Virus record (IMG/VR): IMGVR_UViG_3300025018_000223
Location: 1-45,145 of that record
Source: a virus
Lineage: Duplodnaviria; Caudoviricetes
DNA: 45,145 nucleotides
Direction: 5' to 3' (one strand)
A program made the position numbers and the translations under genes. The notes beneath the pieces were generated by a model that was given only the letters and a program-made list of their open reading frames with translations, made no database searches and was not told the DNA's origin. Positions 1,201 through 44,331 of the stretch are shown in pieces (the stretch's first letter is position 1; every line of letters begins with the position of its first letter).

Positions 1201-1852
1201 TATCGGCCTGCCTTTCGTTGAGGGCGAGGGGATGCCATGCCCAGACGTACATAGTGTCGTCTCCCCACTCTTCTCGGTACACCTCGTCGGCCGGAACCAT
1301 GACGATCAGGCCGAGTTCTTTCAGCGTGTCGAACTCCTCGCCGAATCCCTCGCTGACCGGGAACAGCCGTTCCATCGCCTTCCGCAGCCGGTCGTTCTCG
1401 GCCTCCACCCGGTCCACGTCAGCGATGGGCGCGGCGACCTTCTCGCGGCCGTCAGCAGAAGTAAGGGAACCCCGACCCGTCGGTGGGATGATGTGGGCCA
1501 TGAGGGCTACGGCTTGGCCCCCGTGGGGGGGTCGATCATCAATGAGACAGTCGATGGATTGGGCGTCGAGGAGGATGTTGAGGCTGGCAATGGCATGGCC
1601 AAGGTGGTGAACGCCACTGTCGGAGGCTACCTCCTCTCCATCGTACCACGCGAGGAGGTGACGAAGACACGCCTCGTAGTAGACGGAGGCTTGAACTTTC
1701 TTGTCTCTCCAGTTGTAGGCCCCATACTTCTCGGAGCCATTCCGATGGGCGAGGGCTTGGTGGACAAGAGCGACTGGAGGAATGAGACGGAGAGGCGCCT
1801 TGGTCCTTCCAATGGCGTCCTTTGGGTTAGCGTCATCAGAGATGGGGTTCAT
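1193..1852 (-). CDS. dATP/dGTP diphosphohydrolase domain (DUF5664-type) with a C-terminal extension
   Basis: NPKDAIG..K.PL.LIP, GSEKYGAYNWR, RHLLAWYDGEE...DSGVHHLGHA; ATG 1852 coupled to the upstream TGA. Confidence 0.85.
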   Translation of the reverse strand: MNPISDDANPKDAIGRTKAPLRLIPPVALVHQALAHRNGSEKYGAYNWRDKKVQASVYYEACLRHLLAWYDGEEVASDSGVHHLGHAIASLNILLDAQSIDCLIDDRPPHGGQAVALMAHIIPPTGRGSLTSADGREKVAAPIADVDRVEAENDRLRKAMERLFPVSEGFGEEFDTLKELGLIVMVPADEVYREEWGDDTMYVWAWHPLALNERQADNV

Positions 1853-2148
1853 AGTGGGGTTCCTCTCCGCTGGAGTTCCGCCTTGAAGGCACGGGACCAC
1901 TCCGCGACGGAGTTCCCGTTGATGAACTGCTCGTCCGATATGAACTCGTCGTTGAGTGGGTCGTAAACGCGACGGGTCGGGGCCTGCACAGCCAGCCACC
2001 CAATGCAGTTGCGGATGTGGGATACGGTCATGTCGCGGACTCGGAAGCGTTGGCCCCCGGCGGTGACCCATACCCAGTTCCAGAACCCGTGTGGTATATC
2101 ATACTTCTGAAGAATATCTCGGAGCAGTGGTAGTTGCTTGGTTCTCAT
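1849..2148 (-). CDS. Phage hypothetical protein (WVTAGG...RDMTVSHIRN)
   Basis: GGAG RBS, ATGA coupling at both ends, motif common in small phage proteins. Confidence 0.65.
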   Translation of the reverse strand: MRTKQLPLLRDILQKYDIPHGFWNWVWVTAGGQRFRVRDMTVSHIRNCIGWLAVQAPTRRVYDPLNDEFISDEQFINGNSVAEWSRAFKAELQRRGTPL

Positions 2149-2954
2149 GGCAGGTTCTCCGCAATAGAGGTTGGAGGAGTTAGGATGGTGGGTCGGTCGA
2201 TGGCGATTCGGCCTGTGATGGTCCCCACCATCAAGTCGAGGTGTTCGGTCACGGACTTCAGGTGCGAGGGCGAACGCCGTCGCAGGAGGAACGCGGGGTG
2301 GTAAGTGAACCACACCCGGAGGGGCGGGAACTTGGACGGGTCGGGGGGCTCAAGGATTGGGTCCAGAGGGGGGGCGTCCTTCTTAGGCTTGGGTGGATTG
2401 TAAGGCAGTAGGGTGCGGTACATCCCTTGACTCTTGAACGCATCGGTCATGGATGATACACCGAAGAAGTGGGTGGCTGCCTCAGCGCCACAGCAGAGGA
2501 CGTGGGCTTCGTCGTGGTGGCTAAGGATGTCGTGGATGTCGGCTAGGGAGAAGGGGAGGCAGAGCCGAGCGGCGGTCTTGTTGGGCGGCTTGTTCTGGTT
2601 GGTGTAGCACCGCACCGCATTGACGAGATAGACTGTGCCTAGATCCAGCAGTCGAGGGGTGGTGGACTCCAAGTAGACCCGGCGTAAGAGATGACCAGAC
2701 CGCCCGACGAGAGGGCGATTGTGCAGGTTTTCAATACCGCCGGGGTTGCGGACGGCAACGATGATGGCTCGTTGTGGATTGTGGTCATTGACTCGCTCCG
2801 TAGGGACGCAAACTGCGCCTCTAGGGCCGCAGTCAGCCCATAACGGACAGCGGCGGCAGGTAGGTTGGTTGGGGAACAGAATGGGTAGTGGCTGAGGGGG
2901 CCCCGACCCGTCGCGGTGGAGTGGGGGCACAGGCATCAGGGTTCTCGGTGGCAT
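2145..2954 (-). CDS. Uracil-DNA glycosylase family 4-like protein
   Basis: CRRCPL (Fe-S ligands), NPG..E...RPLVGRSG.LL, NAVRC, TYHPAFLLR; AGGAGG RBS before ATG 2954. Confidence 0.85.
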   Translation of the reverse strand: MPPRTLMPVPPLHRDGSGPPQPLPILFPNQPTCRRCPLWADCGPRGAVCVPTERVNDHNPQRAIIVAVRNPGGIENLHNRPLVGRSGHLLRRVYLESTTPRLLDLGTVYLVNAVRCYTNQNKPPNKTAARLCLPFSLADIHDILSHHDEAHVLCCGAEAATHFFGVSSMTDAFKSQGMYRTLLPYNPPKPKKDAPPLDPILEPPDPSKFPPLRVWFTYHPAFLLRRRSPSHLKSVTEHLDLMVGTITGRIAIDRPTILTPPTSIAENLP

Positions 2955-3087
2955 GGAGAACCTCCTCTCGGATTCGGTAGAGTTCGGTTGCGGTTTCGGG
3001 ACAACCTTCGGTGGCAAGAAGGTCGATGGCGTGATTGAGGATAGTGAGGGGGATGGGGATCAGGAGATCGGGGGGACTCATGGTCAT
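2833..3087 (-). CDS. Hypothetical protein
   Basis: ATG coupled to the upstream stop with a GGAAGGA RBS; 3' end overlaps the UDG gene. Confidence 0.45.
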   Translation of the reverse strand: MTMSPPDLLIPIPLTILNHAIDLLATEGCPETATELYRIREEVLHATENPDACAPTPPRRVGAPSATTHSVPQPTYLPPLSVMG

Positions 3088-3368: not shown

Positions 3369-3938
3369 TCAAGGTTCTTTGTGGAACTGGGTGTGGGCAC
3401 GTTCTTCATCGAGAGCGAGTTGGATGTATTCCTGCTTGATGGCGGGGTCAGTAGTAACCATAGCCTTCGTGCGATAGGCATGGGTGCGGGTGGCGAATGC
3501 CTTATCAGCCCAGTCTACCCATGAGGATACCATGAGGCTATGCCGCTTGAGTAGCCAGAAGACAACCCCCAGCATACCCAACCCGACGGCGAGGAGTATG
3601 AGTTTCACACCCATCGGGATGGAGGAGAACCACGAGGTCTCGGAGGTCATGGCTAGGTTGGCGTCTTGGGCGGTGCCCGTCTGTGCTCGGGTGGTCTGTT
3701 GGGATTGGACAGGTTGAGTGATGGTGATAGTGCCCGGAGAGTCCCCCGACCCGTCAGAGGGTAGGGTGATAACCATGTCGGGGGGGTTGACCGTGGCTTC
3801 CCGAACCACGTCGGTGGTCGTCTCGGACTGGTTGGTTTCGAGTTGGCGTTTCTGGGTGGAGCCACCCGTCTCTGTGGGGATGAGGGACTGGCACCCCATG
3901 AGGAAGATTGTGGCGAGGATGGTAAGTGGGTATCTCAT
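3369..3938 (-). CDS. Lipoprotein with a C-proximal TM helix (unimolecular spanin-like)
   Basis: Signal peptide ending in lipobox LMGC; S/T/Q/P-rich linker; TM VKLILLAVGLGMLGVVFWLL followed by KRH. Confidence 0.6.
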   Translation of the reverse strand: MRYPLTILATIFLMGCQSLIPTETGGSTQKRQLETNQSETTTDVVREATVNPPDMVITLPSDGSGDSPGTITITQPVQSQQTTRAQTGTAQDANLAMTSETSWFSSIPMGVKLILLAVGLGMLGVVFWLLKRHSLMVSSWVDWADKAFATRTHAYRTKAMVTTDPAIKQEYIQLALDEERAHTQFHKEP

Positions 3939-4851: not shown

Positions 4852-5130
4852 TTAGCCCCTTGCGGGAGAATCGTTGGTCTGGCTGACGGGTCGGGGAATC
4901 CAACGGCAAAGGGCACCAGCGGTGGCGATGTAGCCTCCCTCGCTGGGCTTGGGAACTCCCTTCAGGTAGGTTCTTACCTCGGTGTTTTGGGGGAAGATAC
5001 CCCCGTGGATTTCGAGGCAGGTGGCGGGACTCCCATCGAAGTATTGGGTCCGCCCCGTAATTTTGAGGAAGGGGATACCTGCCTCCTTTAGACGACGCAT
5101 GAGGTCTTTCTTGGCTTCATTCAGGGTCAT
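4852..5130 (-). CDS. Hypothetical protein (MTLNEAKKDL...)
   Basis: AAGGAG RBS before ATG 5130. Confidence 0.65.
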   Translation of the reverse strand: MTLNEAKKDLMRRLKEAGIPFLKITGRTQYFDGSPATCLEIHGGIFPQNTEVRTYLKGVPKPSEGGYIATAGALCRWIPRPVSQTNDSPARG

Positions 5131-5228
5131 GGGTACTCCTTCGGACGGGTCGGGGAAAACCCACCCACGCCTCCCCAACCCAACGAGGGAAGGGGAGGGT
5201 ATGGGGTGGGTGCGAGAAGAGACTGGGG

Positions 5229-7466: not shown

Positions 7467-7698
7467 GAGCGGTCTCCTTTCGGGTTGGGGGTTGGATGAC
7501 CACGAATTGTAGGTGGTCGGGGATGGGTGATGTTGGATGGAGTAGATGCTGGGTGTAGTCAAAGACGGTGCATGAGTAGACAACGACGGGTCGGGGCACT
7601 TTGAGGGTGTAGATAAGTTGGAGGGGAGTGCCACCAGACCAATCCATCCAACAACTGAGGGTGGGATCGTCTTGGCGAATAATCATTAGAGGGGGCAA
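7318..7698 (-). CDS. Hypothetical protein between JAB and E1
   Basis: AGGAGG RBS plus TTG at 7698; 3' 149 nt overlap the E1 gene in another frame. Confidence 0.5.
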   Translation of the reverse strand: MPPLMIIRQDDPTLSCWMDWSGGTPLQLIYTLKVPRPVVVYSCTVFDYTQHLLHPTSPIPDHLQFVVIQPPTRKETALAYTYDPRISYSTLLQGALRKNSNANSRPSYWRRKRRPALSPPTGQHGG

Positions 7699-7720
7699 GC
7701 GAACCTCCTAGGGTAGAGAG

Positions 7721-8920: not shown

Positions 8921-8930
8921 GTGAGTCTCC

Positions 8931-10025: not shown

Positions 10026-10054
10026 TGGTTCTCTCCAAAGGGGGGGATGGGTAT

Positions 10055-12149: not shown

Positions 12150-12548
12150 GAGTTAGACCCTGCCGCCCCCCAAGGAGTGGCAGTGTTGAGCGAAAGGCGG
12201 TTCCCCCGACCCGTCCCCGTTAGAAGCGGGGGTCGCGGGGGAAGCAGGCGATCCGTTAGGAAAGCACAACCCTAGCGTAGGCCAATCCACTCACGCGGGG
12301 GACGGCGTACGATGCTAGGGTTCCGTAGGACAACAGGTGCTCCGAAGAGACCAAGCGACCACTACACACCCGAAGGTCAGTAGTGGGTTTATTGGGGGAC
12401 CCCAATTCGCTCCCGCCGACGATACCGAGTGGTACCCGCGTTATGGAGTAGTTGGGGGGCTGCATTGACCGCCGCTGGTAAGCGGCTCCGCCCTACGGAC
12501 GTTGCTCAATCGACTAGGCTCTAACCCCATCGTGTAGTGGGGTATTTA
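12150..12548 (+). ncRNA. Candidate large structured non-coding RNA (~400 nt, family unknown)
   Basis: More than 12 complementary helix pairs, including long-range closing stems and a pseudoknot; non-Watson-Crick positions read as G-U on the plus strand; no convincing ORF. Confidence 0.65.
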
Positions 12549-12582: not shown

Positions 12583-12995
12583 CGTGTGCCGCGAGGGGTT
12601 TTTTGCCCGACATCTAATTCTGCCCTAACAAACGCAGAAGTCTACCGAAAAACCGAAAATCGCGGGCGTTTTTTCGCAAGTCGAGCAATTGCAAGGGTTT
12701 GTGGGCGATAATTTTTGGCGAAGTGGGCCGAAATTATGCGATGTTCGGGTTTTGTTCGCCCTAACAGAATTGGGTATTTTTGGGGTGGGTCCGGGGCGCT
12801 GGTTGGGGTCCAGACGGGGTGTCCGCCGTGGAATGGTGGCCATCTAGGGAGTGAGCAGCGTACGGGCTGGATGGTATGGGAGCGCCCCGACCCGTCTAGG
12901 TGTTACGATTCATCTGTATTGGTGAATGGTTGGGGGTGGTTTAGGAACACGAAGGGGAACCCCGACCCGTCGTGGGGGGGTGTGGATGGGTCGGG

Positions 12996-13063
12996 GTTGG
13001 GTGGTTGATAGTTCTGCTGCGGGGCACGGGTTGGGGAAATGTTGGGTGGTTGATATTTCTGCC
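12996..13063. repeat. Direct repeat GTTGGGTGGTTGATA(G/T)TTCTGC x2, 45-bp spacing
   Basis: Copies at 12996-13017 and 13041-13062. Confidence 0.85.
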
Positions 13064-14460: not shown

Positions 14461-14488
14461 TAGACTTCTACCCCGACCCGTCTATCAT
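14461..14488 (+). promoter_or_regulatory. Sigma70-like promoter with the 12-mer in its spacer, possibly giving a leaderless mRNA
   Basis: TAGACT-16 bp-TATCAT; CCCCGACCCGTC at 14471-14482; ATG at 14494 has no SD. Confidence 0.5.
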
Positions 14489-15059: not shown

Positions 15060-15467
15060 GTGGCAGACGACACTAAACCCCTCCAGCCCGAACCCGGAAT
15101 GCCCCACCGCCTCACCTTTGGACAGTTGCCCGATGGCCGGCTTATCCCCTTGGACGGGTCGGGGTACGTCCTCTCTCCCCCCACCCAAGAACATGCCGGA
15201 CCCCCGCCGACGCCGCCCTCCATCGGTTGTCTCTCAGGCTACCCCACCCGAGTTGTGGTGGCCCTCCGCTTCGTGGACAAGTATCTCGACGCCGCCATCC
15301 CCACGGTCAATGAATCGGGCATCGTGGAGGGTTCCGCTTACGAGATGGACAACGATGAGTTGGCGACCCGCAACGCAGCACTCGAACTTCTCCGCAACTA
15401 CTTCTCCGGTGAAGTAAATTGCGGTGATTACCCTACGGTCGCCACTCCGGAACCGGAGTTCGGATAA
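15060..15467 (+). CDS. Hypothetical protein
   Basis: AGGAGG RBS plus GTG at 15060; stop coupled to the next ATG. Confidence 0.7.
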   Translation: MADDTKPLQPEPGMPHRLTFGQLPDGRLIPLDGSGYVLSPPTQEHAGPPPTPPSIGCLSGYPTRVVVALRFVDKYLDAAIPTVNESGIVEGSAYEMDNDELATRNAALELLRNYFSGEVNCGDYPTVATPEPEFG

Positions 15468-21808: not shown

Positions 21809-21903
21809 CCTTCTGCCCCCGGATCAGGACGACTCGAAGGCCGAAGTAGGGAGGACTAGCGTAAAGTAGCACTACGTCCCTTATGGGACAGAAAGGAACG
21901 GGT

Positions 21904-29058: not shown

Positions 29059-30402
29059 ATGAGCCAGTTCAGCGGTTTTGAGACCCTCAGCCCCTACATG
29101 AGATTCAAGGGTAATGCCCTCCCCAGCGATATACTCGCCCAGTATTTTGGGGTGAACCCGGGTATCTTTGCAGGTACTTCGTTCCATGATTTTGCCGACG
29201 CCCAGAACTTCCTCGAAGGGAAGCCTAACGTCTCTTTCACGACCCCCCAGATGAGGGGGCCCGCCGGATCGAGGGGGCCCAACGGGGAGAAACTACCGCC
29301 CCTCACAATCCCCAGCCTCTTCTCTGCTGCTCTTCAGGATCGTGACAAGGCCCAAGCGTTGGCGGACAAGCAGTATGGTAAGAACGAAGGAGCCATTGAG
29401 GACTTCCGCAAGGGTGTCAACACGGCAGCGGACGTAATCAGTAAGAAGGCCGAAGAGAGCCAGACCTTCATGCGGGGCCAGATCGACACCACGGAGCAGC
29501 GGAACCTCGACGCCGTCGAGGGGGTCAACGCCCAATCGAAGAAGAACGTGGAGCAGGCCAAGATCGACGAGGCCAAGTACCTCGCTCGTGTGGACAAGAT
29601 GGTGGGCCGCACTGAATCTGATCTCGCCCGGTCCAAGAAGGAATACCAAGACGCCACAGCCCAAAGTATCCAGAATCAGAGGCGGGCAGCCGACATCGAC
29701 TTCGGTCGCCAGATGGAGCAACTGGAGGCGACGGGTCGGGGGGCCTCCTCAACCGAAGTTCAACAGTTGAAGGCTCAATACACCGAGAATCTTGGTATCA
29801 TTGCCTCTCGTGCGGGAGAAGCCTACAATAATGCTCTTGCCTCCTTGAACATGAGTCAGGATGAACAGATGCGGCAGATGCGAACGGCAGCCACGAGCAT
29901 GGCTTTCGGGGCGATGCAGCAGACGCAGGGAGCCCGCAGCGAACGGCTCCAGTCAATGGCGAGTATGGCTGGTCTGGTGGCAAGCATCGGCAGCACCGCC
30001 AACGAGCAGCGCGCTGCGGTTGAGTCAATGTACCTCCAAGCGGAAACTACGGCCCAGCAACTCCGGGTCAACGGCCTTGGCGCTGTGGCCGACCTCATTA
30101 TGCGGAACGTCCCCGTCTATCTTCCAATCAGCGGCGTTATCGCCCAAGTGCTGGCGATGAAGAACTCTATGTATACGGGGCAGGGCTGGGGAGCGATTAG
30201 TGGAGGTTCCCAAAACCAAGCGGGTCGGGGTGGCCTCCAGTTCAATCAACCGCCTAGCCAGCAGGAGCCAGAGGCCCCCGAAGGTAAGATGTCGAAGGAG
30301 GGAGAAATCCAGTTTGACCCGAATCTTGGCAGAGGGATGCCAGACCCGCTGCCCCTCCCCCTCCCTCGTCCGGTGAAAAAGAAGCCTCCCTACATGTCGT
30401 AA
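29059..30402 (+). CDS. Internal virion (ejection-type) protein
   Basis: A/Q/M-rich coiled coil; follows tail genes. Confidence 0.55.
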   Translation: MSQFSGFETLSPYMRFKGNALPSDILAQYFGVNPGIFAGTSFHDFADAQNFLEGKPNVSFTTPQMRGPAGSRGPNGEKLPPLTIPSLFSAALQDRDKAQALADKQYGKNEGAIEDFRKGVNTAADVISKKAEESQTFMRGQIDTTEQRNLDAVEGVNAQSKKNVEQAKIDEAKYLARVDKMVGRTESDLARSKKEYQDATAQSIQNQRRAADIDFGRQMEQLEATGRGASSTEVQQLKAQYTENLGIIASRAGEAYNNALASLNMSQDEQMRQMRTAATSMAFGAMQQTQGARSERLQSMASMAGLVASIGSTANEQRAAVESMYLQAETTAQQLRVNGLGAVADLIMRNVPVYLPISGVIAQVLAMKNSMYTGQGWGAISGGSQNQAGRGGLQFNQPPSQQEPEAPEGKMSKEGEIQFDPNLGRGMPDPLPLPLPRPVKKKPPYMS

Positions 30403-32595: not shown

Positions 32596-33923
32596 TGCCC
32601 CCCGCTCTAAAGATGGTCGGTGGTCTCTTCAAGGCTGCCAAGAAGATCAAGAGGTCCGTGGTGCTCAACCAAGCCAAGTTCACCGCCCCCGCACTAAGGA
32701 AACGCGCCCTGAAGCGGGCGGAGCAACTCCTCACCTACGCCCACTCCCGTGAAGTCTACAAGAGCATGAGGGGCAAGATGTCTATGAAAGAGATCGAAGC
32801 CCTTGTGCGTCGGCACCCTGATTTCGAGGCGCAAACGAAGAACCTCGCAGACTACTGGATGGCCAACGGCACGGTTCCTACGTACCACGGTGTCCGTAAC
32901 ATGGCTCGGAAGCGTAGGGTCGTCAAGTCCGTCCAGCGCCGAGCCGAGAAATGGGCGGCTACCACTGAGGCTGCCAAGATCGAAAGCGATAAGCGGGCGG
33001 TTACAGAGGTGGATGCGATGTCCGCAGACTACGCGGAGGCCCAAGACGCCCTGAAGTCCCGCACCGAACTGGAAGAGGAATCCCGCCACACCATCTGGAA
33101 TACCCGCCAGATGCCCGAAGGGGGAAGGCTCGATACAACCGAAGGCCCGATGAATATCGGGGGCGGTTTCGTTCCCATGACGGGGGGTATGCCCGGCCGG
33201 GACGCGATTACGCCTCGCCCAGAGTTCCTAGCCCGAAAGGCCGAGATTCTGGAGAAGAAGGCTCTCGTTGATAAGTATCGCCGTGCCCGAGAGGTCCAGT
33301 CTGCTCTGGATCACTCGCTCGCTGAAGCGGGCCAGCAGCAGACACCTCTGCTGGAGAACTTCCTCGAAGAGACTGGTGGTGAAACCCCGGGTGACATCGC
33401 AGGTCTGATGATCCCCGCACCGAAACCAGTTCTTGACACGCTGGGCCAACACCTGCCTTCACGTCCGGGTGGACCTCTGCCGGGCAGCAGCCTGAAGAAC
33501 AAAACTCCCCCCAGTTATCTGCGGAAGTTTGGCCCTCAAGCCGCGATGCTAGCCGCCATCTTTGGGCTCGATCCTCTCATGCGACGGGTCGGGGAAGCAC
33601 AGGCAGCCCCGGGCAGGGTCCGGCAGCAGGGGCAGAATGCACTATCAACCCTTGGTTCAGGGTTGCCTTCCGAAGAAGAGTTGATCGGCCTGATGTCCCA
33701 GAATAGGGCACGGATGGCCGCAATGGACCCCCAAGTGGTTAGCCAGTTGATGGGCAATAGAGCCTCCACTTCGGGTGAGTTTGTAGTTGGTTCTCCGCAG
33801 GGCCCTGACATTCTCAATCAGGTAATCATGCGGTCGATGTTGAACGGTTCTGCGGCTGGCGGAGAAGGTCTCAGCCAGTTGGACCCCCAAGTTCTAAAGA
33901 TGCTTATGCAGGGAAGTAGGTAA
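32595..33923 (+). CDS. Internal virion (ejection-type) protein
   Basis: Coupled ORF, GGAGG RBS, basic amphipathic N-terminus. Confidence 0.55.
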   Translation: MPPALKMVGGLFKAAKKIKRSVVLNQAKFTAPALRKRALKRAEQLLTYAHSREVYKSMRGKMSMKEIEALVRRHPDFEAQTKNLADYWMANGTVPTYHGVRNMARKRRVVKSVQRRAEKWAATTEAAKIESDKRAVTEVDAMSADYAEAQDALKSRTELEEESRHTIWNTRQMPEGGRLDTTEGPMNIGGGFVPMTGGMPGRDAITPRPEFLARKAEILEKKALVDKYRRAREVQSALDHSLAEAGQQQTPLLENFLEETGGETPGDIAGLMIPAPKPVLDTLGQHLPSRPGGPLPGSSLKNKTPPSYLRKFGPQAAMLAAIFGLDPLMRRVGEAQAAPGRVRQQGQNALSTLGSGLPSEEELIGLMSQNRARMAAMDPQVVSQLMGNRASTSGEFVVGSPQGPDILNQVIMRSMLNGSAAGGEGLSQLDPQVLKMLMQGSR

Positions 33924-34387: not shown

Positions 34388-37300
34388 ATGAGCCAATTCA
34401 ATAACCCCATGAACGTAGGGCCCTCCGCATCCGTTCCAGTGCGGAGGGTTACTGCGTTTGATCGACCTGCCATAGCCGGAGCCCGACTGCTGGACCTTGA
34501 TCCCCGGTCGGCCTTCTTGGCTATGGTCTCGCCCAACAGCCTTAGCCCCTCTCAGCGGGAGACGCTGGCGGATCAGGTGGGCCCCGGCAACGGGATTATG
34601 AAGGCAATCATGTCGGTTGCCACCAACCCTCTGTTCCTCGTGGGCGCATTACTCGCGTTCAAGCATCCTCTTCCCACTGCCGCTAACATCTTCAAGACGG
34701 CTAAGGGCTTTGGGGCCTATACCCGCAAGACCGCTCCCCTGTTTAGGTGGCTCAACTCCAGTTGGGACAATTATCGGGGCACCACAATTCCCCAACTAAT
34801 GCACCACTCTGCGATGCAGATTCAGTGGACAAACCACTTCCACATGACCCCCGTATCCCACGCTATCACCGCGTGGGAGAAAGCAATGGGCCGCAAGTTC
34901 GATGGAAGTGTGGAGAATATCCTCGTCCACGCGAAACTAGGAGGGCTGGATCGGGTCGTCACCCGCGATCTGAAGAAGGTCGTCACCAAGAGGGGAGCCA
35001 TCGTTGATATCAAGAGGATTCCCAAAACCTACCAACCTCTCTTCAAGCCCATCCAACTCGACCCCCTTGCCCAAAGAATCCACGACGTTATCCGGAAATC
35101 CTATGAGCAGCAGTGGGAGAACATGACCGATAATCCTCTCGCATTGGCTCAGGGCATCCGGTCGATGCGAAAGGGTGATCTTCGTATTGGAGACCCCGAC
35201 CGCGTATTCTTCGAGGGCCTGTTCGACGGAAATACCCTGAACTCCATATTGAAGGCGAAGCACCTTACCCTATCTAAACTTGAGAAGGTGCTTACAGAAT
35301 ACTTTGAGAAAGACCCTGCCTACCATCCTCGCTACCGGGTGGGTGGCGAGGACGCATTCGCCAACCGGGTGGCTCAGGCTCGGTCTGAAGGTAAGAATGG
35401 GGTCAACGCGGTCAAGGCGGTGATGGACGAGACCCTCGAAAGAGAACTCGTCAGGGCGGGAGTCGGCTCCAAGACTCGGGCCCGCGTCCGAGCGGCAGCC
35501 GCTCCTCACACCGCCAACCCCTCCCTCTATGCCCGGCAGAACACCACCCTGTGGGACAACTACGATCCTGAAGCCCTCGCTAGGGTCCGTGACCATCTCA
35601 TCGACAAAGACCTGCCCGAGCGGAACCGCCGTCGCATCACCCACATAAGAGAGGCGGGGAAGGATACTCACAGCACCCCCTTCACCATGAACGCTCAGAG
35701 GGCGTGGGAGGAATACACCAACCGAGCGGCAGTCACAAAAACCCTATACCTCGACCGGGTTCCTGACTGGATTGTGAAGATGAACAAGGAGTTGGCGGAC
35801 ACACCCAAAGTACCTCTCGAAGAGAATATGTCTATCGGAATGGCGTTTCGGGCCGAGTACGAAAGTATCCCGTCCGAAGCCCTACGCCGAGACCTAGCGG
35901 ACATATGGCTTCCCACGGTCAAGGGTCAACTCACTGTTCCCCAATTCAACCAACGACTATTCTGGTCCGGCATCAAGAAGCGTTTTGGCGAGGCGCTCGA
36001 CGGAGGTTCCCCCGACCCGTCTAAGCCAGCCGGGGTAATTGGGCCGCTGCTGCAAAAGACCTTGGGAGAGAAGGGGTACGAGAACTTTCGTCTTCACTTG
36101 GAGAAGGTGCCCCGGGGTCAGATAGGTACGAGTCTGGCGAGTTGGCTGTATACGGGCGCTCTGGGCCTGAGCCCCGGCGCGGCGTTCCAGAACATGTTTC
36201 AGACCTACTTGACCACCTCCCAGTTTCTTCCGTTCAAGCATGTGATGACGGGTCAACTGAAGGCGTTGAGTTCCCTGCGATCCTATGCAGCCGATCGACT
36301 GGGGGGAATGCCTAGTCGGGAGGCTGCGGGCCGCTCGTTCCAGTCTCTTATCAACATCGGGCAGGAACTAGACCCCCGGTTTACCCGAGGTCTTGCCGCC
36401 TCGCTGGAGGGTTCCTTCCAAGCAGGTCTGTCCTCCGTACAAGGGATCAAGTCTAAGGCCGAGCAACTACAGAACATCTCGATGGCTATGTTCACGACCT
36501 CGGAGCGTTTCGTTCGACTTACGGCTGCCTACGGGGCAGAGAGTTTTGCCGCCGCATCAGGCATAGCCACTGGTTCGTCGGAGTCCCTCAACTTCATCAA
36601 TCAAGTGGTCCAGCGGACCCAGTTCAGTGCGGGTGTGTCCAATATTCCTAGGGCACTCGTCAATCTACCCGCCCCCCTCAAGCAGTTCGTGAAGTTCCCC
36701 CTCAGTCTGGCGACTACTCTCACCTCGGCCAGTCCTTATGTGGGGGGTGGGGCTCCCCGTGCCCTCAGTGGCGGTCTTGGTAGGGCGCTCGTGGGGTCCA
36801 CGGCCATATTCGAGGCGGGTCGGGCCCTCTTCGACGTGGACACCGACCGGATGCTACTCTTCGGAGGACTTCCTCTCCCCGAACCAGATGGGCCCTTGGC
36901 CCCGTTCCCCTTTGTCCCCCCCGCCGTTGGTGCTGCGGCTTCCGGCGTCCAAGCCCTTGTGGGAGGAGACCCCACCCAACTGCGTTATGCCTTGACCCCT
37001 TTTATTCCCGGTGGAGTATCCCTAGCCAAGGTGGCTCCCTTTGCTGCCCCCGGGGTTGCCGAGCAGTTAGGGCTCGCCCACATCGACTGGAACAACCCTC
37101 TCAATGGACAGTTCCCCTACTATAGCCAGACAGGGGCACTCGTGGGTTACTTCAGTAAGGAGCAACTTGCACTCAAGGCGATGGGTCTCGATAACACCGG
37201 CACCCAACGAGAGGGTGACGTTCTCCACTATCTCACTGCACAGCGGGATAAGATCAGGGCGACTCGTCGGTCCTATGCGGAGGCGTTGTGGGCCAGTGAG

Positions 37301-37717
37301 TTTGATAAAGCCCAGAAGATCGAGCACGAGTGGGGTCGCAACTGGCCGGAGATGGGCCCCATCACGGTCTCCAAAACGGACTACCAGAATCTCCAGACTC
37401 GACTGACCATGACCCGCATGGAGCGAGCGATCCAGACGCTCCCGCCCGACCTCCGGCCCATATTCAGTGCGGCGGTCGCCGCAGGTCTAACTCCCCGATT
37501 CGCCGGGATGTTCGGCCTTGATGCCCAGATGCTGGGAGCCTCAGTCAGTAACCGAAACGCGGCCCGACCCCGTGGTCCGATAACCCAACAGCGGGGTCTC
37601 TACGGGGGAGGCGGGTCGGGGGTCAACCAACAGGCACCCCCCAGCGGAACACCCTTCGTAGGCTTCCGTGGGTTCCAATCCCCTATGGATACAACCGATC
37701 AGATTCCCCTCTACTGA
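34388..37717 (+). CDS. Large internal virion/ejection protein, 1109 aa
   Basis: Last and largest gene of the virion module; helical with G/A-rich hydrophobic segments; GGAG RBS and a CTATAAT box upstream. Confidence 0.6.
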   Translation: MSQFNNPMNVGPSASVPVRRVTAFDRPAIAGARLLDLDPRSAFLAMVSPNSLSPSQRETLADQVGPGNGIMKAIMSVATNPLFLVGALLAFKHPLPTAANIFKTAKGFGAYTRKTAPLFRWLNSSWDNYRGTTIPQLMHHSAMQIQWTNHFHMTPVSHAITAWEKAMGRKFDGSVENILVHAKLGGLDRVVTRDLKKVVTKRGAIVDIKRIPKTYQPLFKPIQLDPLAQRIHDVIRKSYEQQWENMTDNPLALAQGIRSMRKGDLRIGDPDRVFFEGLFDGNTLNSILKAKHLTLSKLEKVLTEYFEKDPAYHPRYRVGGEDAFANRVAQARSEGKNGVNAVKAVMDETLERELVRAGVGSKTRARVRAAAAPHTANPSLYARQNTTLWDNYDPEALARVRDHLIDKDLPERNRRRITHIREAGKDTHSTPFTMNAQRAWEEYTNRAAVTKTLYLDRVPDWIVKMNKELADTPKVPLEENMSIGMAFRAEYESIPSEALRRDLADIWLPTVKGQLTVPQFNQRLFWSGIKKRFGEALDGGSPDPSKPAGVIGPLLQKTLGEKGYENFRLHLEKVPRGQIGTSLASWLYTGALGLSPGAAFQNMFQTYLTTSQFLPFKHVMTGQLKALSSLRSYAADRLGGMPSREAAGRSFQSLINIGQELDPRFTRGLAASLEGSFQAGLSSVQGIKSKAEQLQNISMAMFTTSERFVRLTAAYGAESFAAASGIATGSSESLNFINQVVQRTQFSAGVSNIPRALVNLPAPLKQFVKFPLSLATTLTSASPYVGGGAPRALSGGLGRALVGSTAIFEAGRALFDVDTDRMLLFGGLPLPEPDGPLAPFPFVPPAVGAAASGVQALVGGDPTQLRYALTPFIPGGVSLAKVAPFAAPGVAEQLGLAHIDWNNPLNGQFPYYSQTGALVGYFSKEQLALKAMGLDNTGTQREGDVLHYLTAQRDKIRATRRSYAEALWASEFDKAQKIEHEWGRNWPEMGPITVSKTDYQNLQTRLTMTRMERAIQTLPPDLRPIFSAAVAAGLTPRFAGMFGLDAQMLGASVSNRNAARPRGPITQQRGLYGGGGSGVNQQAPPSGTPFVGFRGFQSPMDTTDQIPLY

Positions 37718-38409
37718 GCCTTCCGCCTCCGCCTCATCTCGGCCCGAAGCCGAAGCCTCTCTTCTCCTGTGATCCGAGGATCAATGAGAGGGTTGGGTAG
37801 GAACGGTCGCTGTATCTCTGGGACACCCTTCTGGAATCCGTAGGCCATCTCCGGTTGAACCTGCTTGGGCCACACCCCCCCCGCTTCCTTAGCCACCCAG
37901 TCTACCCCGCCCACTCCACCTTTCGTGCGGGACTTGAGAAGCACCGGCATCAGAGGGACACCTCTCTCCGCTAGCACTGTTGCTCTATGGCGACCCTCGT
38001 GGTCAAGTACCAACGCCAAGCCCTGCTCATCGTGAGTTACCCTAAGATAGGGTATGCCGTTGAGTTTCTTACCCGAGTCAAGCACCGCCCGGATGTTCGA
38101 CAGTTTCTTTTGGCTGGTTGAGTCAATGATCTGCGAAATCCCCGCGACCTTGTATTCCTTCTGGAGAGGAAAGGCTAGTTTGAGGAAGTCTTTGGGAGAC
38201 ATCCAGATGAGTTTCTCGTCAGAGTACGCTAGTCTTCGACTCGCTCGCCGGAGGGCTTCGTCGCTCCAATAGGAGCGTGGAGTCACAGCGGATTCACCCA
38301 TGAGTTTCGATCTAACAACGGTGCGGGCCGCTCCAAAGATACCCCGACCCGTCGCTGGTGTAATTACCTTCTTGACCGCCTTACCGAGGATACGGGGAAG
38401 TGGGGGCAT
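37711..38409 (-). CDS. ParB/Srx-like N-terminal domain protein
   Basis: IPYLRV....LVLDHEGRHRA..LAERG...MPV resembles the ParB GxxR motif. Confidence 0.7.
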   Translation of the reverse strand: MPPLPRILGKAVKKVITPATGRGIFGAARTVVRSKLMGESAVTPRSYWSDEALRRASRRLAYSDEKLIWMSPKDFLKLAFPLQKEYKVAGISQIIDSTSQKKLSNIRAVLDSGKKLNGIPYLRVTHDEQGLALVLDHEGRHRATVLAERGVPLMPVLLKSRTKGGVGGVDWVAKEAGGVWPKQVQPEMAYGFQKGVPEIQRPFLPNPLIDPRITGEERLRLRAEMRRRRKAQ

Positions 38410-38412
38410 AGG

Positions 38413-38790
38413 TTACCTCTGGCAGGGGGGATAGTCTTGGGCGATTTCGGGCCACTGTTCCCAAAGCACCTCGCAACCATGTGCGGCTTGCGGGTGGTAG
38501 GGGGAGCCATCCGGCCACGCAGCATAGGCAATCGCCGCCACGTTCTGCCCGATGATGATCCGCATGAGGGACTCGTTGTGGTCGGGGTTATCTCTGTCGA
38601 TGAGGTGGCCCAGCGACCGGCTGTCTTCGACGATCCGATCCACCAACTGATACTTAGTGAGGGGACCGGTGGACGGGTCGGGGGGATCGACAGCGAGGAC
38701 ACAAGGAACTATGACGAGAAGGAGAATCAGCCCGAGGCTGGCAACACCAAGAGCGGTGGCTTCTTTCCACGGGGGGGATTTCGACATCAT
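38413..38790 (-). CDS. Exported or membrane-anchored small protein
   Basis: AGGAG RBS; hydrophobic signal-like N-terminus; CTATAAT box upstream. Confidence 0.65.
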   Translation of the reverse strand: MMSKSPPWKEATALGVASLGLILLLVIVPCVLAVDPPDPSTGPLTKYQLVDRIVEDSRSLGHLIDRDNPDHNESLMRIIIGQNVAAIAYAAWPDGSPYHPQAAHGCEVLWEQWPEIAQDYPPCQR

Positions 38791-38813: not shown

Positions 38814-40004
38814 TTATAGGGGGGGTGCCCCGTTGAAGAAACCGATGGTGTTGAGAAATTGGGCGGTCTCGGGGTCGAACTGGACGTAGCCCTCCCCAAG
38901 GGGGTGGATCAGGTGGATGTGCTGCCACTGTTCAAGGATGGTCTCCACCCGATTCCTATCGGCTACTCCGCTTATGTGGTGAAGATTGGTCTGGGTGGCG
39001 CTGTGGTGGGGACTGTTCCAGAGGAGGTTCACCATGCGGCCCGTAGGCCCGTCCAGTGCGTCCCACGCGAGCCGCTGGGCAAACCGGATATCCGAGGGGT
39101 CCGGCTCACTGCGGAGGTCAAGATAGGCCCTCAGGGTGGCCGCAGTGCCCACAGTATTGACGAGGCGGTTGGCGGTGGGCACGTCCTGAAGAGTACCCTT
39201 GACGGCTCTCGAACGGAAGGCCATGACGGCATTGGCTAACCCGGATAGAGTCATCTGGAGGTCAGGGGACGGGTCGGGTAAACTCCCTATTTTGGGGAGA
39301 TGGGCCCACGCCCTCTCTACTTCTCGGGTGACGGTGAGGAGCAACTCCGACTCCCAGATGTGCTGGCCCCGCCCAAACTGGGCCACTCGGGTAGTCTCTT
39401 CGGATCGGCCTCGTAGGGTATGTGCCCTAGTTCTGCCAATGCGTATGGTGAAGAAGCGTTCGCCCATCTGGGTGAGGGACTCGGTGCGAACATCTAGTTC
39501 CTCAGTGCAGGCTAGCACCATCCCGAACTTGGCGTCGGCACTGATTTCGCCTACGGTGCCCGACGCCTTGACGAGCCGCCCGTCGAACACATCCCTCAAC
39601 TGGCCCAGCAGGTCTTCAACTTGGGACGTGCCCTTGTTCAGTTGGGTGGTGAAGTCCTCGAAGACCACCACCCTCCCATTCCACTTCTTGATAACGCTTG
39701 GGTCTTCCTCTTCTGTTCGTTCAGCCCCTTTCTCTCCCGGATCATAGGCGCTCAGGAGAGCATTGGCGGTAACCATACTTATTTTATGGTAGACGGGCAG
39801 CCCGGAAAATGCGTGGAGCATTACGTTCTTGCCCGTACCACTCGGTCCAATCAAGTAGAGCCACAACCTCTTGGGCAGGGCCTTGTAGGTAGCCGCGAGG
39901 AATACACAGGCGATGGCGTCGATGGCCCAGAGGTCGTCCGGGCGGAACGCTGTCAAGCGGGTATACGCATCCCTAATCGCTTGGAGGGGGGTCGGTTCGC
40001 TCAT
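38814..40004 (-). CDS. AAA+ ATPase, replicative helicase-like (MCM-related), possible C-terminal winged helix
   Basis: Walker A GPSGTGKN, Walker B VVVFEDF, LRDVFDG, arginine finger ERF; AAGGAG RBS. Confidence 0.75.
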   Translation of the reverse strand: MSEPTPLQAIRDAYTRLTAFRPDDLWAIDAIACVFLAATYKALPKRLWLYLIGPSGTGKNVMLHAFSGLPVYHKISMVTANALLSAYDPGEKGAERTEEEDPSVIKKWNGRVVVFEDFTTQLNKGTSQVEDLLGQLRDVFDGRLVKASGTVGEISADAKFGMVLACTEELDVRTESLTQMGERFFTIRIGRTRAHTLRGRSEETTRVAQFGRGQHIWESELLLTVTREVERAWAHLPKIGSLPDPSPDLQMTLSGLANAVMAFRSRAVKGTLQDVPTANRLVNTVGTAATLRAYLDLRSEPDPSDIRFAQRLAWDALDGPTGRMVNLLWNSPHHSATQTNLHHISGVADRNRVETILEQWQHIHLIHPLGEGYVQFDPETAQFLNTIGFFNGAPPL

Positions 40005-40590
40005 CCTGCAACTCCTTGACTCGGGGCATGAAGGAGGCGAACGCACCGAAATGCTCCGTGTCCCCGAACTTTACTAGACCACTATACGCCACGGTGCGCC
40101 CTGTTCTTATGAAAGGAAGATTGAAGTCGGGTGGGGTGTATCGGTCAAGTGCGTCGTAGAATTGTTTGGTGAGGTTGACATAGGTTGAGGGCCATCCCTT
40201 TACGCGGGTCGTCTTACCTTTGAGGGGGATCACGGCGCTGGTCGCGGGGTTTATGAAATAGACATCGGTGAGAGCGAGATAACCTGTGAATAGAGACATC
40301 AGCCCAGCCCACAAAATTAGAGTGGACCTGTTTACGAGATCAAGCGATCTCCGCATATCAAGGATGCACAGATGGGCGTGGGCGTAATAGGTGGCGTGGG
40401 GGTGTTCAGGCGGGAGTGTAGCGATCCCGTGATAGGTGGTGGGCCGATCACAATACACCTGAGAATCGAAGTCCGGGAAGTGTTTGAGTTTTGGTAGACG
40501 CAACTGCCCAAGACAGTAATTGTAATTGAAGTTGTATGACGCCTCGCTTCCAAGAAAGGGGGCGACGAATGTGGGTTCTGTGGAGCCCAT
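39973..40590 (-). CDS. Hypothetical protein
   Basis: GGGAGG RBS. Confidence 0.7.
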   Translation of the reverse strand: MGSTEPTFVAPFLGSEASYNFNYNYCLGQLRLPKLKHFPDFDSQVYCDRPTTYHGIATLPPEHPHATYYAHAHLCILDMRRSLDLVNRSTLILWAGLMSLFTGYLALTDVYFINPATSAVIPLKGKTTRVKGWPSTYVNLTKQFYDALDRYTPPDFNLPFIRTGRTVAYSGLVKFGDTEHFGAFASFMPRVKELQDERTDPPPSD

Positions 40591-41034: not shown

Positions 41035-41467
41035 GGGGTGGAAGGATGCAGAGCACATCCGCCTCCTTTAGAAGTTTGTAGGTCTGGGCCTCGAACGACA
41101 CGTCCTGCCCACTGTAAACGTTGAACACCACGCGGTCCCCGACCCGTAGTAGGGGTCGCTCCTTCAGGTCTTGGCCAGAGGCGGCGACAACCCCCGTATT
41201 CATGGGCTTCGTGGCGTCCGACGGGATGAAAATACCCTGCCGGCTTCGAGTCAGGGGTTTGTCCACAACGATCAGGATTCGGTCCCCCCGAGGGATGGGT
41301 TTATCCGTGGGGTAGGGTGTCTCGGACATAGCGGATTTCTCCATTTCAAGATGTAGGCTGGCAAGACTCGCTCCGGCTCCAAAGAAGGCAGCCTTCCACT
41401 CTTCGAGGAAGGCTTGGTCGATGGGGTCCACAGGGTCTGTTTGCGTAGTTTCAGCGATGGCTGGCAT
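41027..41467 (-). CDS. groES: Co-chaperonin GroES (core from ATG 41329; upstream ATG 41467 adds 46 aa)
   Basis: PRGDRILI, GIFIP, GVVAASG, VGDRVVF..YSG, LLKEADVLC. Confidence 0.88.
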   Translation of the reverse strand: MPAIAETTQTDPVDPIDQAFLEEWKAAFFGAGASLASLHLEMEKSAMSETPYPTDKPIPRGDRILIVVDKPLTRSRQGIFIPSDATKPMNTGVVAASGQDLKERPLLRVGDRVVFNVYSGQDVSFEAQTYKLLKEADVLCILPPHG

Positions 41468-41573
41468 CCGGACTCCTTTAGCGTGGGGGGTGTGCCTCAG
41501 TCGGGCAGGGACCCCCCACGACGGGTCGGGGTCATTGGATGGTGAAGAACGATTCTTCACCTAGGATGATAGG

Positions 41574-42089
41574 CTAGTGACTCGCGTCGGGCAACCGCTT
41601 GAGGATGTCCTTGTTGACATACTCAGTGCCCTTGTTGGTGTTTCGGCGGACCCGGACGCTGTATTGCCCGGTGTTGACGAGCGCCTCCGCTCGACGGAAC
41701 ATGTCTGAGGTGGTTGTCCATTCCGTGACGCGGCATCCGAGAAGTCCACAGATGAGGGTCTTGGTCCGGTCGAGGTCTTGGGTCTTGCGACTGCTGGACC
41801 CCTCACGATTCGTGAAGTAGCCGAGGCTGAAGGTTGCACCGTTGGCCGTGGCGTGGTCGTAGATGCGGACGATGGGCGTGATAACCACACACGGGTCGGG
41901 TTCCTCCGCTCCACCTTTGCCCGTCCGATAATTACCGTAAGTACCCAACCCCACGTTGAAGCCGGTGAGGATGACACTGTAGGTATCGTCTGGCGGATCG
42001 GTGAGGCCGGACCCCGCAGACTCCGCAAAGGCGTCCTCTTGTGCCGTGAGCAGGCTGAGGGCGCGTTCCATCGTGTTCTGGTCTGACAT
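41574..42089 (-). CDS. Single-stranded DNA-binding-like protein
   Basis: PPDDTYSVILT pattern, beta-rich, next to a recombination ATPase; AAAGGA RBS. Confidence 0.5.
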   Translation of the reverse strand: MSDQNTMERALSLLTAQEDAFAESAGSGLTDPPDDTYSVILTGFNVGLGTYGNYRTGKGGAEEPDPCVVITPIVRIYDHATANGATFSLGYFTNREGSSSRKTQDLDRTKTLICGLLGCRVTEWTTTSDMFRRAEALVNTGQYSVRVRRNTNKGTEYVNKDILKRLPDASH

Positions 42090-42133
42090 ATCAAGTTCCT
42101 TTCAGGAAGTGGTTTACCCCTACAAGGGGTGGT

Positions 42134-43126
42134 TTAGGAAGGGGAGATAGAAGCGAGAGCAGTATTATAGGCTGCTCGAAGGAGATCGAAGTTGCCGGGG
42201 GCAGGAAGTCGGGGATTTTCCGGATGCGAGGGCAGAATGATCTCGTCGGGCAGGGGGATGCGCTGCTTGAGCGTTTGGTTCCCCCGGTCATTCTCCCAGA
42301 AGCGAGCGTAGTGGATAGTGCGGGGCACTCGATCCTTGATCTCACGGATGAGGGCCCCCGACCCGTCCTTGATCGGGTTCCCGTTGCCGTCCTTACGGGG
42401 CTCCCCATAGATGATCTCGGTTTCGATACGGGAACCAACCCCACAAACATAGTCCACGAGACCCTTGATCTTGTGCCAGAACTTGGGCGGGATACTGTGG
42501 TTCAGACGGTAGGTAACTTTGTCCTGACCCCTCGCGTCGGTGGAGGTAATGGCCTCCTCGTAGAAGTAGCAGAACATGATGAAGCCATACCCCGCCCGAA
42601 TGATACGTCCGATAATGGGTTCTGCGTGTTCATAGACTTTTTGCCACCCGTAGCCCCCCGGGATATCGTCGATGGTCAGGATGTTAGCAGCCTGTTCGGC
42701 ATTGAACTGGGCCCGTTTGTCCCGAGCGTTTTGGACCACGAAGGTCTTGACCGATTCAAGGAAGGTGTCCACGGTATCAAGACAAACGAAGGTGGGTCGG
42801 GGTTTACCATCACGAGCAAGTTGTTCGAGGGTTTCGACCACCTCAACAAGTTGCCGGTAGTCCGAGGGGCCCTTGCAAAACTGGATAGCACTAGCGACAC
42901 TATTGGGGTTGTTGTCCTTGGAGCCATCGAAGTCAAGCCGCAGAACGTCGGAAGAGGTGGAGACGAGGCTGGTCTTGCCACTTCCCTGCACCCCCGGGAT
43001 CAGGATAGCCAGTTGGTTGAACTGTTTGGGGTTGAACCCCGTGACGGGGTGGAACTTACTGAAGGATGTCAGGAAGTTTGGGGTTGTTACCCGACCCGTT
43101 ACGGTTGTTTGTGCGTTGGGGGGCAT
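42134..43126 (-). CDS. AAA_24/Sak4-like P-loop ATPase (recombination/annealing)
   Basis: GVQGSGKTS, LDFDG, CLDTVD, GYGW, VDYV; AAGGAG RBS. Confidence 0.8.
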   Translation of the reverse strand: MPPNAQTTVTGRVTTPNFLTSFSKFHPVTGFNPKQFNQLAILIPGVQGSGKTSLVSTSSDVLRLDFDGSKDNNPNSVASAIQFCKGPSDYRQLVEVVETLEQLARDGKPRPTFVCLDTVDTFLESVKTFVVQNARDKRAQFNAEQAANILTIDDIPGGYGWQKVYEHAEPIIGRIIRAGYGFIMFCYFYEEAITSTDARGQDKVTYRLNHSIPPKFWHKIKGLVDYVCGVGSRIETEIIYGEPRKDGNGNPIKDGSGALIREIKDRVPRTIHYARFWENDRGNQTLKQRIPLPDEIILPSHPENPRLPAPGNFDLLRAAYNTALASISPS

Positions 43127-44331
43127 CAGAGTATCTCCTTGAGGGTTTCGTAGTCGCGGAAGACCCCAGCAGTATACTGACCGCTGGCGAGTAAGTCAGG
43201 CCACTTCTTGGGACCGTAGGCGTAGAATGGGTGAAGGTCGTGAAGTGCGTTTCCAAAGTGGTTAGCACACGATACACGCGGGAAGTTGTCTGGGTAGGGC
43301 GCTCGGGTGGCAAGGGAGTACGCCTCCCTCAGTTGGATCAGGAACTCGTGGGAGTATGTGGGTTCATAGAAGCGGAGGAAGGAGCAGAGGTAGGGATACT
43401 CATTCTTAGCCCGACGACCGGCTTCGAGATTGGTATACTCCTCTGTAGAGGTTAGCCAGCAGCGATACCGATGGAGGAACTCTTCTCGGGTCTCGTGCTG
43501 CTTCTGGCGGATACCCGGCTTCTGGATGATGTTGTGCCGGAAGCCCACCAATGGGTAGGGTAACCGGAGTAACCCCGCGTTGGCCTCCACGATGAGGCGG
43601 TAGAGCCTGACAGGGAACTCAAACGAGCAACTGGAGGCACGGATACGGGGGTCGGCGCCGGTGGACTTATGATCCTCGATCCAACACTCCTTGCGTCGGT
43701 GGTCCACAAGTAGGGCATCCACCCTACACACACAGGGGTGCTTTCCCACCTCGGTGGGTAGGTCGGCGGCGAGCAACTTCTCAACAGCCAAGACCTCTAT
43801 CTCAGGATACGCCTCATTGATAAGGGGCATCAACTCAACTGTCAGATGGCCCATACTGATGGCGAGGCTGGACTCCTTCTCCAAGTCTACCATATACTCC
43901 TCAAGTTTGATGCCCCCCGGGAGGACACCTGACTCAGTGGCTGCCTCCTCGGCCGCTCCGTAGAGGCGAGCAACCTCTGAGTCCACCGCTTTGTCTCCTG
44001 CTTGAAGTCTGGACGGGTCGGGGGCCTTCGATGGGGAGCGGTGAGCCGCCATCCACGTATGGTAGAGAGAACCAGTGTCGAGAGCCCCGATGGCCCGCAC
44101 CGTGTTGCGGACGATCCCTAGGCGGCAGCGCAGGTAGTAGTAAAAGGGGTCTTGGACGCCTTCCCGATAATCGGAGGCACGAATGGGGGGTTCAATGCTA
44201 TTGATTCCGTTGGCTTTGAGGAAGTCGAGTGCGTGGGGGCCCCTCTCATCCTCGGAGAGGGGATTGTCTAAGGGAGTGGCGTGGATTAGGGGTGCAAAAT
44301 GAGGCTTGGGTTCTTCAAGGATTTCCTTCAT
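43126..44331 (-). CDS. PD-(D/E)XK nuclease (RecB/Cas4-like phage exonuclease)
   Basis: ALDTGSLYH, AVEK, CRVDALL, IEDHKST; AGGAG RBS. Confidence 0.85.
   Translation of the reverse strand: MKEILEEPKPHFAPLIHATPLDNPLSEDERGPHALDFLKANGINSIEPPIRASDYREGVQDPFYYYLRCRLGIVRNTVRAIGALDTGSLYHTWMAAHRSPSKAPDPSRLQAGDKAVDSEVARLYGAAEEAATESGVLPGGIKLEEYMVDLEKESSLAISMGHLTVELMPLINEAYPEIEVLAVEKLLAADLPTEVGKHPCVCRVDALLVDHRRKECWIEDHKSTGADPRIRASSCSFEFPVRLYRLIVEANAGLLRLPYPLVGFRHNIIQKPGIRQKQHETREEFLHRYRCWLTSTEEYTNLEAGRRAKNEYPYLCSFLRFYEPTYSHEFLIQLREAYSLATRAPYPDNFPRVSCANHFGNALHDLHPFYAYGPKKWPDLLASGQYTAGVFRDYETLKEIL

Follow-up and report, generated by a model that had tools for sequence, protein, structure and literature searches.

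A strongly selected asymmetric DNA word across a lineage of tailed phages, possibly a directional replication site

The window analysed here is the whole of virus record IMGVR_UViG_3300025018_000223 (Duplodnaviria; Caudoviricetes), 45,145 bp at 58% GC from an uncultured phage of groundwater, and the element in question is an asymmetric 12-letter word, GACGGGTCGGGG, which recurs on both strands along its length. Among 56 open reading frames (ORFs) of the window we recognised genes for TerL, a DNA methyltransferase, a dATP/dGTP diphosphohydrolase, UDG, a metallophosphoesterase, ThiF, GroES, Sak4 and an exonuclease; the portal and capsid labels were assigned from position and conservation. A gene for the family A DNA polymerase (PolA) is absent from the contig, probably because the contig is incomplete, whole relatives measuring 50–59 kb. 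Our analysis finds the word to be real, strongly selected, lineage-wide and not explained by the known families tested, and it is from its arrangement that we infer a mechanism.

The exact word occurs 24 times (14 copies on the plus strand and 10 on the minus strand) against 0.02 expected, with a maximum of one copy in 100 dinucleotide shuffles, and allowing up to one mismatch gives 34 copies against 1.01 expected (shuffle maximum 5). This agrees with the initial annotation, which had counted at least 24 exact copies and judged them far above chance; 13 of the 14 near-copies that it listed are present at two mismatches or fewer, and the one at 28498 is absent. Changes in the ten one-mismatch copies are confined to positions 1–3 and 12, with positions 4–11 invariant, and the consensus of the array is G-R-Y-GGGTCGGG-G. 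A second IMG/VR record matches the window at 99.9% identity over 15.7 kb, and the sites at 5144, 15153, 16488, 17610 and 29730 are identical in contigs of three other public runs (X2, X3 and X5; run X1, a possible source sample, was left out of the count of independent runs), which together rule out an assembly artefact. Searches of open-licence PMC and bioRxiv main texts returned no relevant match to GACGGGTCGGGG as text and, by concept, no description of the lineage or of the word pattern.

The coding analysis used 49 hand-curated genes that cover 92% of the window. Eighteen of the 24 exact copies lie within genes, 11 in sense and 7 in antisense orientation and in all three frames, and six sit in the 8% of the DNA outside genes. 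When synonymous codons were resampled with the proteins held fixed, 0.25 coding copies were expected (maximum 3 in 300 runs) against the 18 observed, so that the enrichment persists against the codon-preserving null that had been proposed as a check. The proteins permit the exact word at 20 places, of which 18 carry it, whereas for twelve shuffled words taken together 26 places are permitted (about 2 per word) and none is used. The filling of 18 of 20 permitted places against 0 of 26 therefore points to selection on the DNA, and that as many as 20 places permit the word, where a shuffled one has about 2, indicates that proteins have been altered to hold it. The loop that carries the TerL copy is not preserved among TerL relatives of 47–70% identity. 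That the copies fall in different frames and strands, and that a genome-wide asymmetric site, read by some factor, is selected at the level of DNA, had both been put forward from the letters of the window, and both claims are supported.

The trait extends to the relatives of this phage. Scans with TerL and with PolA returned 80 and 74 loci, respectively, and the comparison took in 33 related records, each complete or almost so. A strong purine-rich word of its own is present in 27 of the 33, a weak one in two (G329, G342) and none in four (G027, G328, G330, G331), proportions that are not a frequency estimate because the records were partly hand-picked (ten for a locus with a word and four for a locus without one). 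These words include CAGTGGGGGT, GAGTGGGGG, TAGCGGGGAA, TAGTGGGGAA, GCTGGTGGGG and CTGCGGAGG, as well as CTGCAGGGGC, CTGCTGAGGC, GCAGAGACAGG, GACTGGAAGGGG, CCTTGAGTGGGGG and TGACGGGGGACGGGG; CCCCCACTG is a candidate word of what may be the same lineage. The words of the compared records mostly number 15–58 copies in a near-whole genome and have a common build, a short 5' part with a pyrimidine followed by a purine-rich 3' tract. The word of G333 is nearest to that of the window, and words of closely related phages can lie one letter apart (TAGCGGGGAA vs TAGTGGGGAA). The scores of whole genomes with a word run from 1e-13 to 1e-73; as a control, a score of 1e-9 or better was reached in 6 of 47 unrelated viral loci, two of these six being one phage that had been chosen for the window's word. 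Of the sites in genomes with the same word, some have orthologues and many lack them, so it is density that is kept and not position. In a quick portal tree the four word-less relatives form separate long branches, within a part that is not resolved. The initial annotation had considered a single word, and its view is widened here by the different words that relatives carry under a common spacing grammar.

No close relative of the window phage was found among GenBank phages. A 14-mer scan of viral contigs gave mainly single chance matches, and more than one exact 12-mer was seen in that scan only in the near-identical L001 and in one unrelated 37%-GC phage. L006/G024 (54.6 kb, 37% GC), an unrelated phage without the lineage TerL, carries seven copies of GGGTCGGG in 29.6–42 kb, four of which read ACGGGTCGGG.

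The placement of the copies follows rules that recur across the lineage. On each strand the spacing is more even than random in eight representatives (Fisher p 1.9e-5 and 4.1e-4) and again in nine genomes fetched later (Fisher p 4.3e-7), pooled p-values that overstate the evidence because related genomes are not independent; mean per-strand gaps are 1.5–5.9 kb. Neighbouring copies with the 5' ends of their G-rich strands facing, here called back-to-back, are closer together in the window than head-to-head neighbours (gap ratio 4.5, p=0.0026). Within 250 bp there are 24 back-to-back and 3 head-to-head pairs in nine representatives (11.5 expected of each), and within 500 bp there are 41 and 16 in the later nine genomes (21.6 expected of each), the spacing within back-to-back pairs not being fixed (8–250 bp). 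Same-strand neighbours less than 500 bp apart occur at about half of the expected number (24 vs 51.5; later genomes 23 vs 43.5). In seven genomes the G-rich strand of the copies coincides more often with the TerL strand than with the other, and this is so in each of the two transcription arms (87:60 and 49:28). In the window, 12 of 15 copies between 14.4 and 37.7 kb are on the plus strand, roughly the bias described in the initial annotation; in the seven genomes the bias tracks the genome strand and not transcription. Across 23 genomes no site (0) falls in the likely capsid gene, where 21.4 were expected, compared with 23 against 27 for TerL and 17 against 27 for the portal gene.

Sites that are orientation-dependent, regular on each strand, blind to transcription and paired back-to-back are best explained by a machine that starts from the site and travels along the DNA. 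The reading that we prefer, with a probability of roughly 40%, is that the word is a directional replication start or loading site read by a phage factor. Each copy would serve one fork direction, about every 2–5 kb, and could act as a priming site or as a loading site for a helicase or polymerase, while a close back-to-back pair may form a small bidirectional start, akin to the paired opposite-strand priming sites of T7. In T7, the gp4 priming site is 5'-(G/T)2GTC-3' plus a 3' flank, and a distance of 101 bp separates the first such sites on the two lagging strands; the window's word contains 5'-GGGTC-3', a T7 priming pentamer, and its per-strand spacing falls in the 1–6 kb range given for T7 priming sites (PMC12839067). 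The sites of the NrS-1 primase-polymerase are 5'-TTTGGTTA-3' and 5'-GTGG-3' (PMC8718748), and many of the relatives' words hold GTGG. Like primase priming sites, the word is asymmetric, present on both strands and spaced by kilobases; unlike those short sites, it is an exact 9–15-mer forced into proteins.

Such a long and specific word may compensate for a missing recognised primase in this lineage of PolA and stand-alone helicases. Pfam and PHROG scans found no primase domain in the scanned ORFs, a subset, of the window, G003, G004, G005, G008, G011, G026 and G027. The D5-type helicases match primase-helicase profiles over the helicase part only, and among longer homologues of the window helicase 7 of 11 carry Toprim, Prim-Pol or NrS-1-type primase domains. 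Swaps of helicase type, none with a primase domain, were observed in G000, G003–G005, G329, G330, G333–G337 and G340. Because the word-less G027, the sole one of its kind scanned with Pfam, also shows no primase, replication without a primase does not require the word.

The reader may be a small beta-rich protein encoded after SSB, and no gene clusters were found that separate word-bearing from word-less genomes by sequence. By position, an ORF for a beta-rich protein of 140–225 aa follows SSB; it can be assigned to a profile family in 20 of the 25 word-bearing genomes, the window among them, in which SSB was located (family A in 7, B in 12, two of them weakly, and D in 1), and by position only in the window, G026 and G338. 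Both weak-word genomes (G329, G342) carry family D, and the ORF is found in 0 of the 4 word-less genomes, SSB being directly followed by the helicase in G027 and G330. For the window's candidate, 39973–40590, a word-index search gave no homologue and the Atlas no usable hit. Judged by gene context, it is a better candidate binder than the four ORFs proposed in the initial annotation (37711–38409, 14494–15024, 13210–13638 and 40648–41034), none of which clustered with any relative's protein. The predicted fold of family A is confident (predicted local distance difference test score 85, predicted template modelling score 0.82) and consists of two similar beta-rich halves, each closed by a helix. 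It had no Foldseek match at E<=0.001 and no PDB sequence match; its best VIA rows are MraZ (Z 4.0, root-mean-square deviation 4.9, 104 aligned), FliM (4.0) and a B3-like domain (3.5), a predicted resemblance to MraZ and B3 that we treat as a lead and not as an identification. A putative AbrB-like stretch had been noticed by eye before these fold comparisons. Family A (P0272–P0391) forms 168 clusters at 90% identity, most of the matches listed being 145 aa long, which suggests that it diversifies fast. Two other candidate readers were set aside: the helicase as sole reader, as three unrelated types share the same grammar, and an excisionase-like ORF beside TerS, which is lacking from the window and from five more genomes with a word and is also ruled out by its presence in three word-less or weak-word genomes. 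The most far-reaching version of the proposal, in which a widespread lineage of PolA phages with no recognisable primase starts synthesis at dozens of long, lineage-specific words, tiled over both strands and forming mini-origins as back-to-back pairs, all read by a new family of small, fast-evolving beta-barrel proteins whose genes lie between SSB and the helicase, with word and reader gained, changed and lost together, is one that we consider doubtful.

Several observations weigh against a replication start or loading site. No primase or initiator was identified in the ORFs scanned from eight genomes, a difference, within that scope, from the priming sites above, and several words lack a G-Y-S triplet; we dropped the idea of such a universal primase triplet once further words had shown that it is not common to all. 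Three unrelated types of stand-alone helicase (D5/SF3, AAA_25 and that of the window) occur under the same grammar, and PolA and the recombination genes are still present in the four genomes without a word. As for the reader, the word-bearing G011 and G339 have no post-SSB ORF, the post-SSB families are not linked by profile to one another or to 39973–40590, their proteins diverge to 31–56% identity while the word is unchanged, and the match of family A to MraZ is weak, tied with FliM, with no VIA row at Z 5. In the window by itself the spacing on each strand is not significantly even (p 0.17 and 0.81), the pairing is reversed in G333 (2 vs 6), and no back-to-back excess was found in G008, G012, G014, G335, G339, L120 and L126.

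A phage-private analogue of Chi is possible, if unlikely. At such a site the exonuclease/Sak4 module or an ERCC4 nuclease would stop, nick or load, limiting resection from breaks in either direction and seeding recombination-dependent replication; replication from invading ends requires no primase, and copies on both strands at even spacing fit breaks at random places. The exonuclease and Sak4-like genes are present in 23 of 23 clustered genomes, unlike the Chi-rich phages, which are described as without a recombination module of their own (PMC12315714). The word is G-rich and asymmetric and occurs about once per 1–2 kb, as in the Chi-rich phages LLS and MD8 (PMC12315714), and the word of one relative includes the Chi octamer GCTGGTGG, although this Chi-containing word continues with GG in 28 of 33 cases. 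However, the four word-less genomes retain exonuclease and Sak4, and independent resection of two ends would not itself predict back-to-back pairs. The copies of Chi-rich phages lie on one strand and cluster at the ends (PMC12315714), whereas the 14 plus-strand and 10 minus-strand copies here are spread over the window, and those of relatives are even. Unlike Chi, moreover, the word is longer than 8 nt and differs between close phage clades.

We think it quite unlikely that virion DNA carries programmed nicks or base modifications at the word, or that the word is recognised at packaging or ejection. The nick sites of tf/LUZ24-, T5- and phiKMV-like phages are likewise strict, asymmetric, multicopy words with clade variants, tf- and LUZ24-like phages having 8–14 copies of an asymmetric 9-mer, and these published sites are on one strand only (PMC3517423), whereas here both strands carry copies. 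The scarcity of close head-to-head pairs would avoid converging nicks. The window does encode a DNA methyltransferase, but only 3 of 23 clustered genomes have one.

DNA uptake sequences of Neisseriaceae and Pasteurellaceae are dense, lie in both orientations and in coding sequence, have dialects and occasionally form inverted pairs. The word resembles them in its frequency of about 1 per 1.3 kb, its length, both orientations, its location inside genes, its dialects and its hairpin pairs, and each phage clade might be copying a host signal of this kind, or Chi or KOPS, which we regard as distinctly improbable. Unlike uptake sequences, which are features of host chromosomes with hundreds to thousands of copies, the window's word is not enriched in any of 301 genomes of G027's phylum (at most 17 copies); all 21 copies of the G026 word in its bin are on the phage contig, and each of 150 other genomes has 0–1. 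TerL relatives occur in metagenome-assembled genomes titled Planctomycetaceae, Bacteroidota and Sericytochromatia (possibly mis-binned). The lack of enrichment across the 301 + 151 bacterial genomes searched speaks against the host uptake or Chi word considered in the initial annotation and favours a phage-private word, an unsampled host aside. Close relatives differing by a single letter fit poorly with copying from a host, and Chi-rich phages, which do exist, have the one-strand, end-clustered layout described above (PMC12315714). Separately, the bacterial contig region G252:C156:499-1287 holds three window 12-mers about 390 bp apart, probably within a repeat protein.

We give equally little credence to a phage DNA-binding protein that coats the genome in the manner of stoperators, whether to block transcription, to mark immunity or to organise the DNA. 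A site-free capsid gene is expected if bound protein hinders heavy transcription, although the gap may also reflect the translation cost of G-runs or proline codons; the share of copies outside genes and the weak fold matches of the candidate to MraZ and B3 DNA-binding domains also fit. Like the stoperators of Cluster A mycobacteriophages, which number more than 20 asymmetric 12–13-mers over a 45–55 kb genome with clade variants, the word is repeated and clade-specific; stoperators, however, lie at promoters and in short intergenic spaces, follow the direction of transcription and belong to temperate phages with a cognate repressor (PMC9283540). Here most copies are inside genes, in both sense and antisense, the strand lean is the same in both arms, and no integrase or repressor match was detected among the 56 ORFs of the incomplete contig, and the stoperator-type silencing suggested in the initial annotation is not borne out. 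Stoperators, Chi-rich phages and nick sites thus each differ from the word in at least one defining feature tested. Finally, although G-rich words encode the common loop residues Gly, Pro and Ser and a few unrelated viral loci reach a modest word score, an artefact, a codon or amino-acid bias or a neutral repeat is contradicted by the codon-aware nulls, the independent assemblies and the replicated spacing grammar, and is hardly credible.

The coordinates of the array and of the genes discussed are collected in Table 1. The region at 12100–14400 is mainly non-coding, between divergent arms, with a poly-G run near 12550–12583 and clustered word copies, and GC skew flips near 14 kb; it is a candidate control region or genome end. 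The contig ends (1–1426 and 44800–45104) have 85–97% look-alikes in run X1 and the other runs compared, at a depth of 150–2700 against about 43, so either these genes also belong to a commoner element or the ends are mosaic. The DNA methyltransferase, dATP/dGTP diphosphohydrolase and nucleoside deoxyribosyltransferase-like genes at 589–2071 and 44315–44830 (minus strand) hint at nucleotide modification. A ThiF/E1 gene (Pfam 6.6e-17) within 6606–10488 (minus strand) adjoins a JAB-like gene, whose match is faint in the window and 1.4e-7 in G026, along with two unknown ORFs, and the set may be a prokaryotic ubiquitin-like operon carried by the phage; homologues of ThiF or JAB are also present in G026, G329, G331, G334, G335, G337 and G340. 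The 1109-aa protein encoded at 34388–37717 (plus strand) is kept in 23 of 23 clustered genomes, and in the Atlas it neighbours viral clusters named 'large polyvalent protein'. In G337 (C1:46403-49408), a TerL of 1018 aa matched as two pieces around an insertion of about 390 aa, which is possibly an intein.

Table 1. Copies of the word and related features of the window
Feature	Position	Strand	Context
Whole array	1470..44023	both	24 exact and 10 one-mismatch copies
Exact copy	1470..1481	-	sense, dATP/dGTP diphosphohydrolase gene, peptide TGRG
Exact copy	1971..1982	+	antisense, ORF 1849-2148
UDG-family gene	2145..3017	-	in relatives fused to or adjoining family A DNA polymerase
Exact copy	2335..2346	+	antisense, UDG-family gene, PDPS
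Exact copy	2901..2912	-	sense, UDG-family gene, DGSG
Exact copy	3744..3755	-	sense, ORF 3369-3938
Exact copy	4885..4896	+	antisense, ORF 4852-5130
Exact copy	5144..5155	+	intergenic; also seen in run X3
Exact copy	7585..7596	+	antisense, near ThiF gene start
Exact copy	12204..12215	-	non-coding region separating the arms
Exact copy	12885..12896	-	non-coding
Back-to-back pair	12960..12996	12960 (-), 12985 (+)	exact and one-mismatch copy, respectively; inverted repeat
Exact copy	14471..14482	-	immediately ahead of virion arm
Exact copy	15153..15164	+	sense, DGSG; also seen in run X3
One-mismatch copy	16488..16499	+	sense, end of ORF preceding TerL
Exact copy	17610..17621	+	TerL gene, loop encoding DGSG
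One-mismatch copy	18525..18536	+	sense
Exact copy	19665..19676	+	likely portal gene, TGRG
Likely major capsid gene	21883..23328	+	word-free; label from position and conservation, no family hit
Back-to-back one-mismatch pair	24946..25110	24946 (-), 25099 (+)	within a single gene
Exact copy	27121..27132	+	sense
One-mismatch copy	27656..27667	+	sense
One-mismatch copy	28810..28821	+	sense
Exact copy	29730..29741	+	sense; also seen in run X2
Exact copy	33583..33594	+	sense, RRVG
Exact copy	36010..36021	-	antisense, gene of 1109-aa virion-arm protein
One-mismatch copy	37610..37621	+	sense
Back-to-back exact pair	38342..38683	38342 (-), 38672 (+)	
Stand-alone P-loop ATPase, likely helicase	38814..40004	-	stand-alone relatives of about 400 aa
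One-mismatch copy	39268..39279	+	antisense, helicase gene
Candidate reader	39973..40590	-	205-aa orphan between SSB/GroES and helicase; positional match only
Back-to-back pair	41137..41531	41137 (-), 41520 (+)	one-mismatch copy in GroES and exact intergenic copy, respectively
SSB-like, Sak4-like annealase and exonuclease genes	41574..44463	-	recombination module common across lineage
Exact copy	42356..42367	-	sense, Sak4-like gene
Exact copy	44012..44023	+	antisense, exonuclease gene

An exact word of 9–15 letters that is forced into essential proteins every 1–2 kb is a strong and unexplained constraint. The lineage makes this constraint testable, since it supplies about 20 words, four relatives that naturally lack one, a spacing grammar that has been replicated and a few candidate readers. 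A protein family that retargets over many asymmetric sites of 9–15 bp would be of interest as a DNA-binding scaffold, and, if the word is indeed a replication start or loading site, it would show how phages without a known primase start DNA synthesis.

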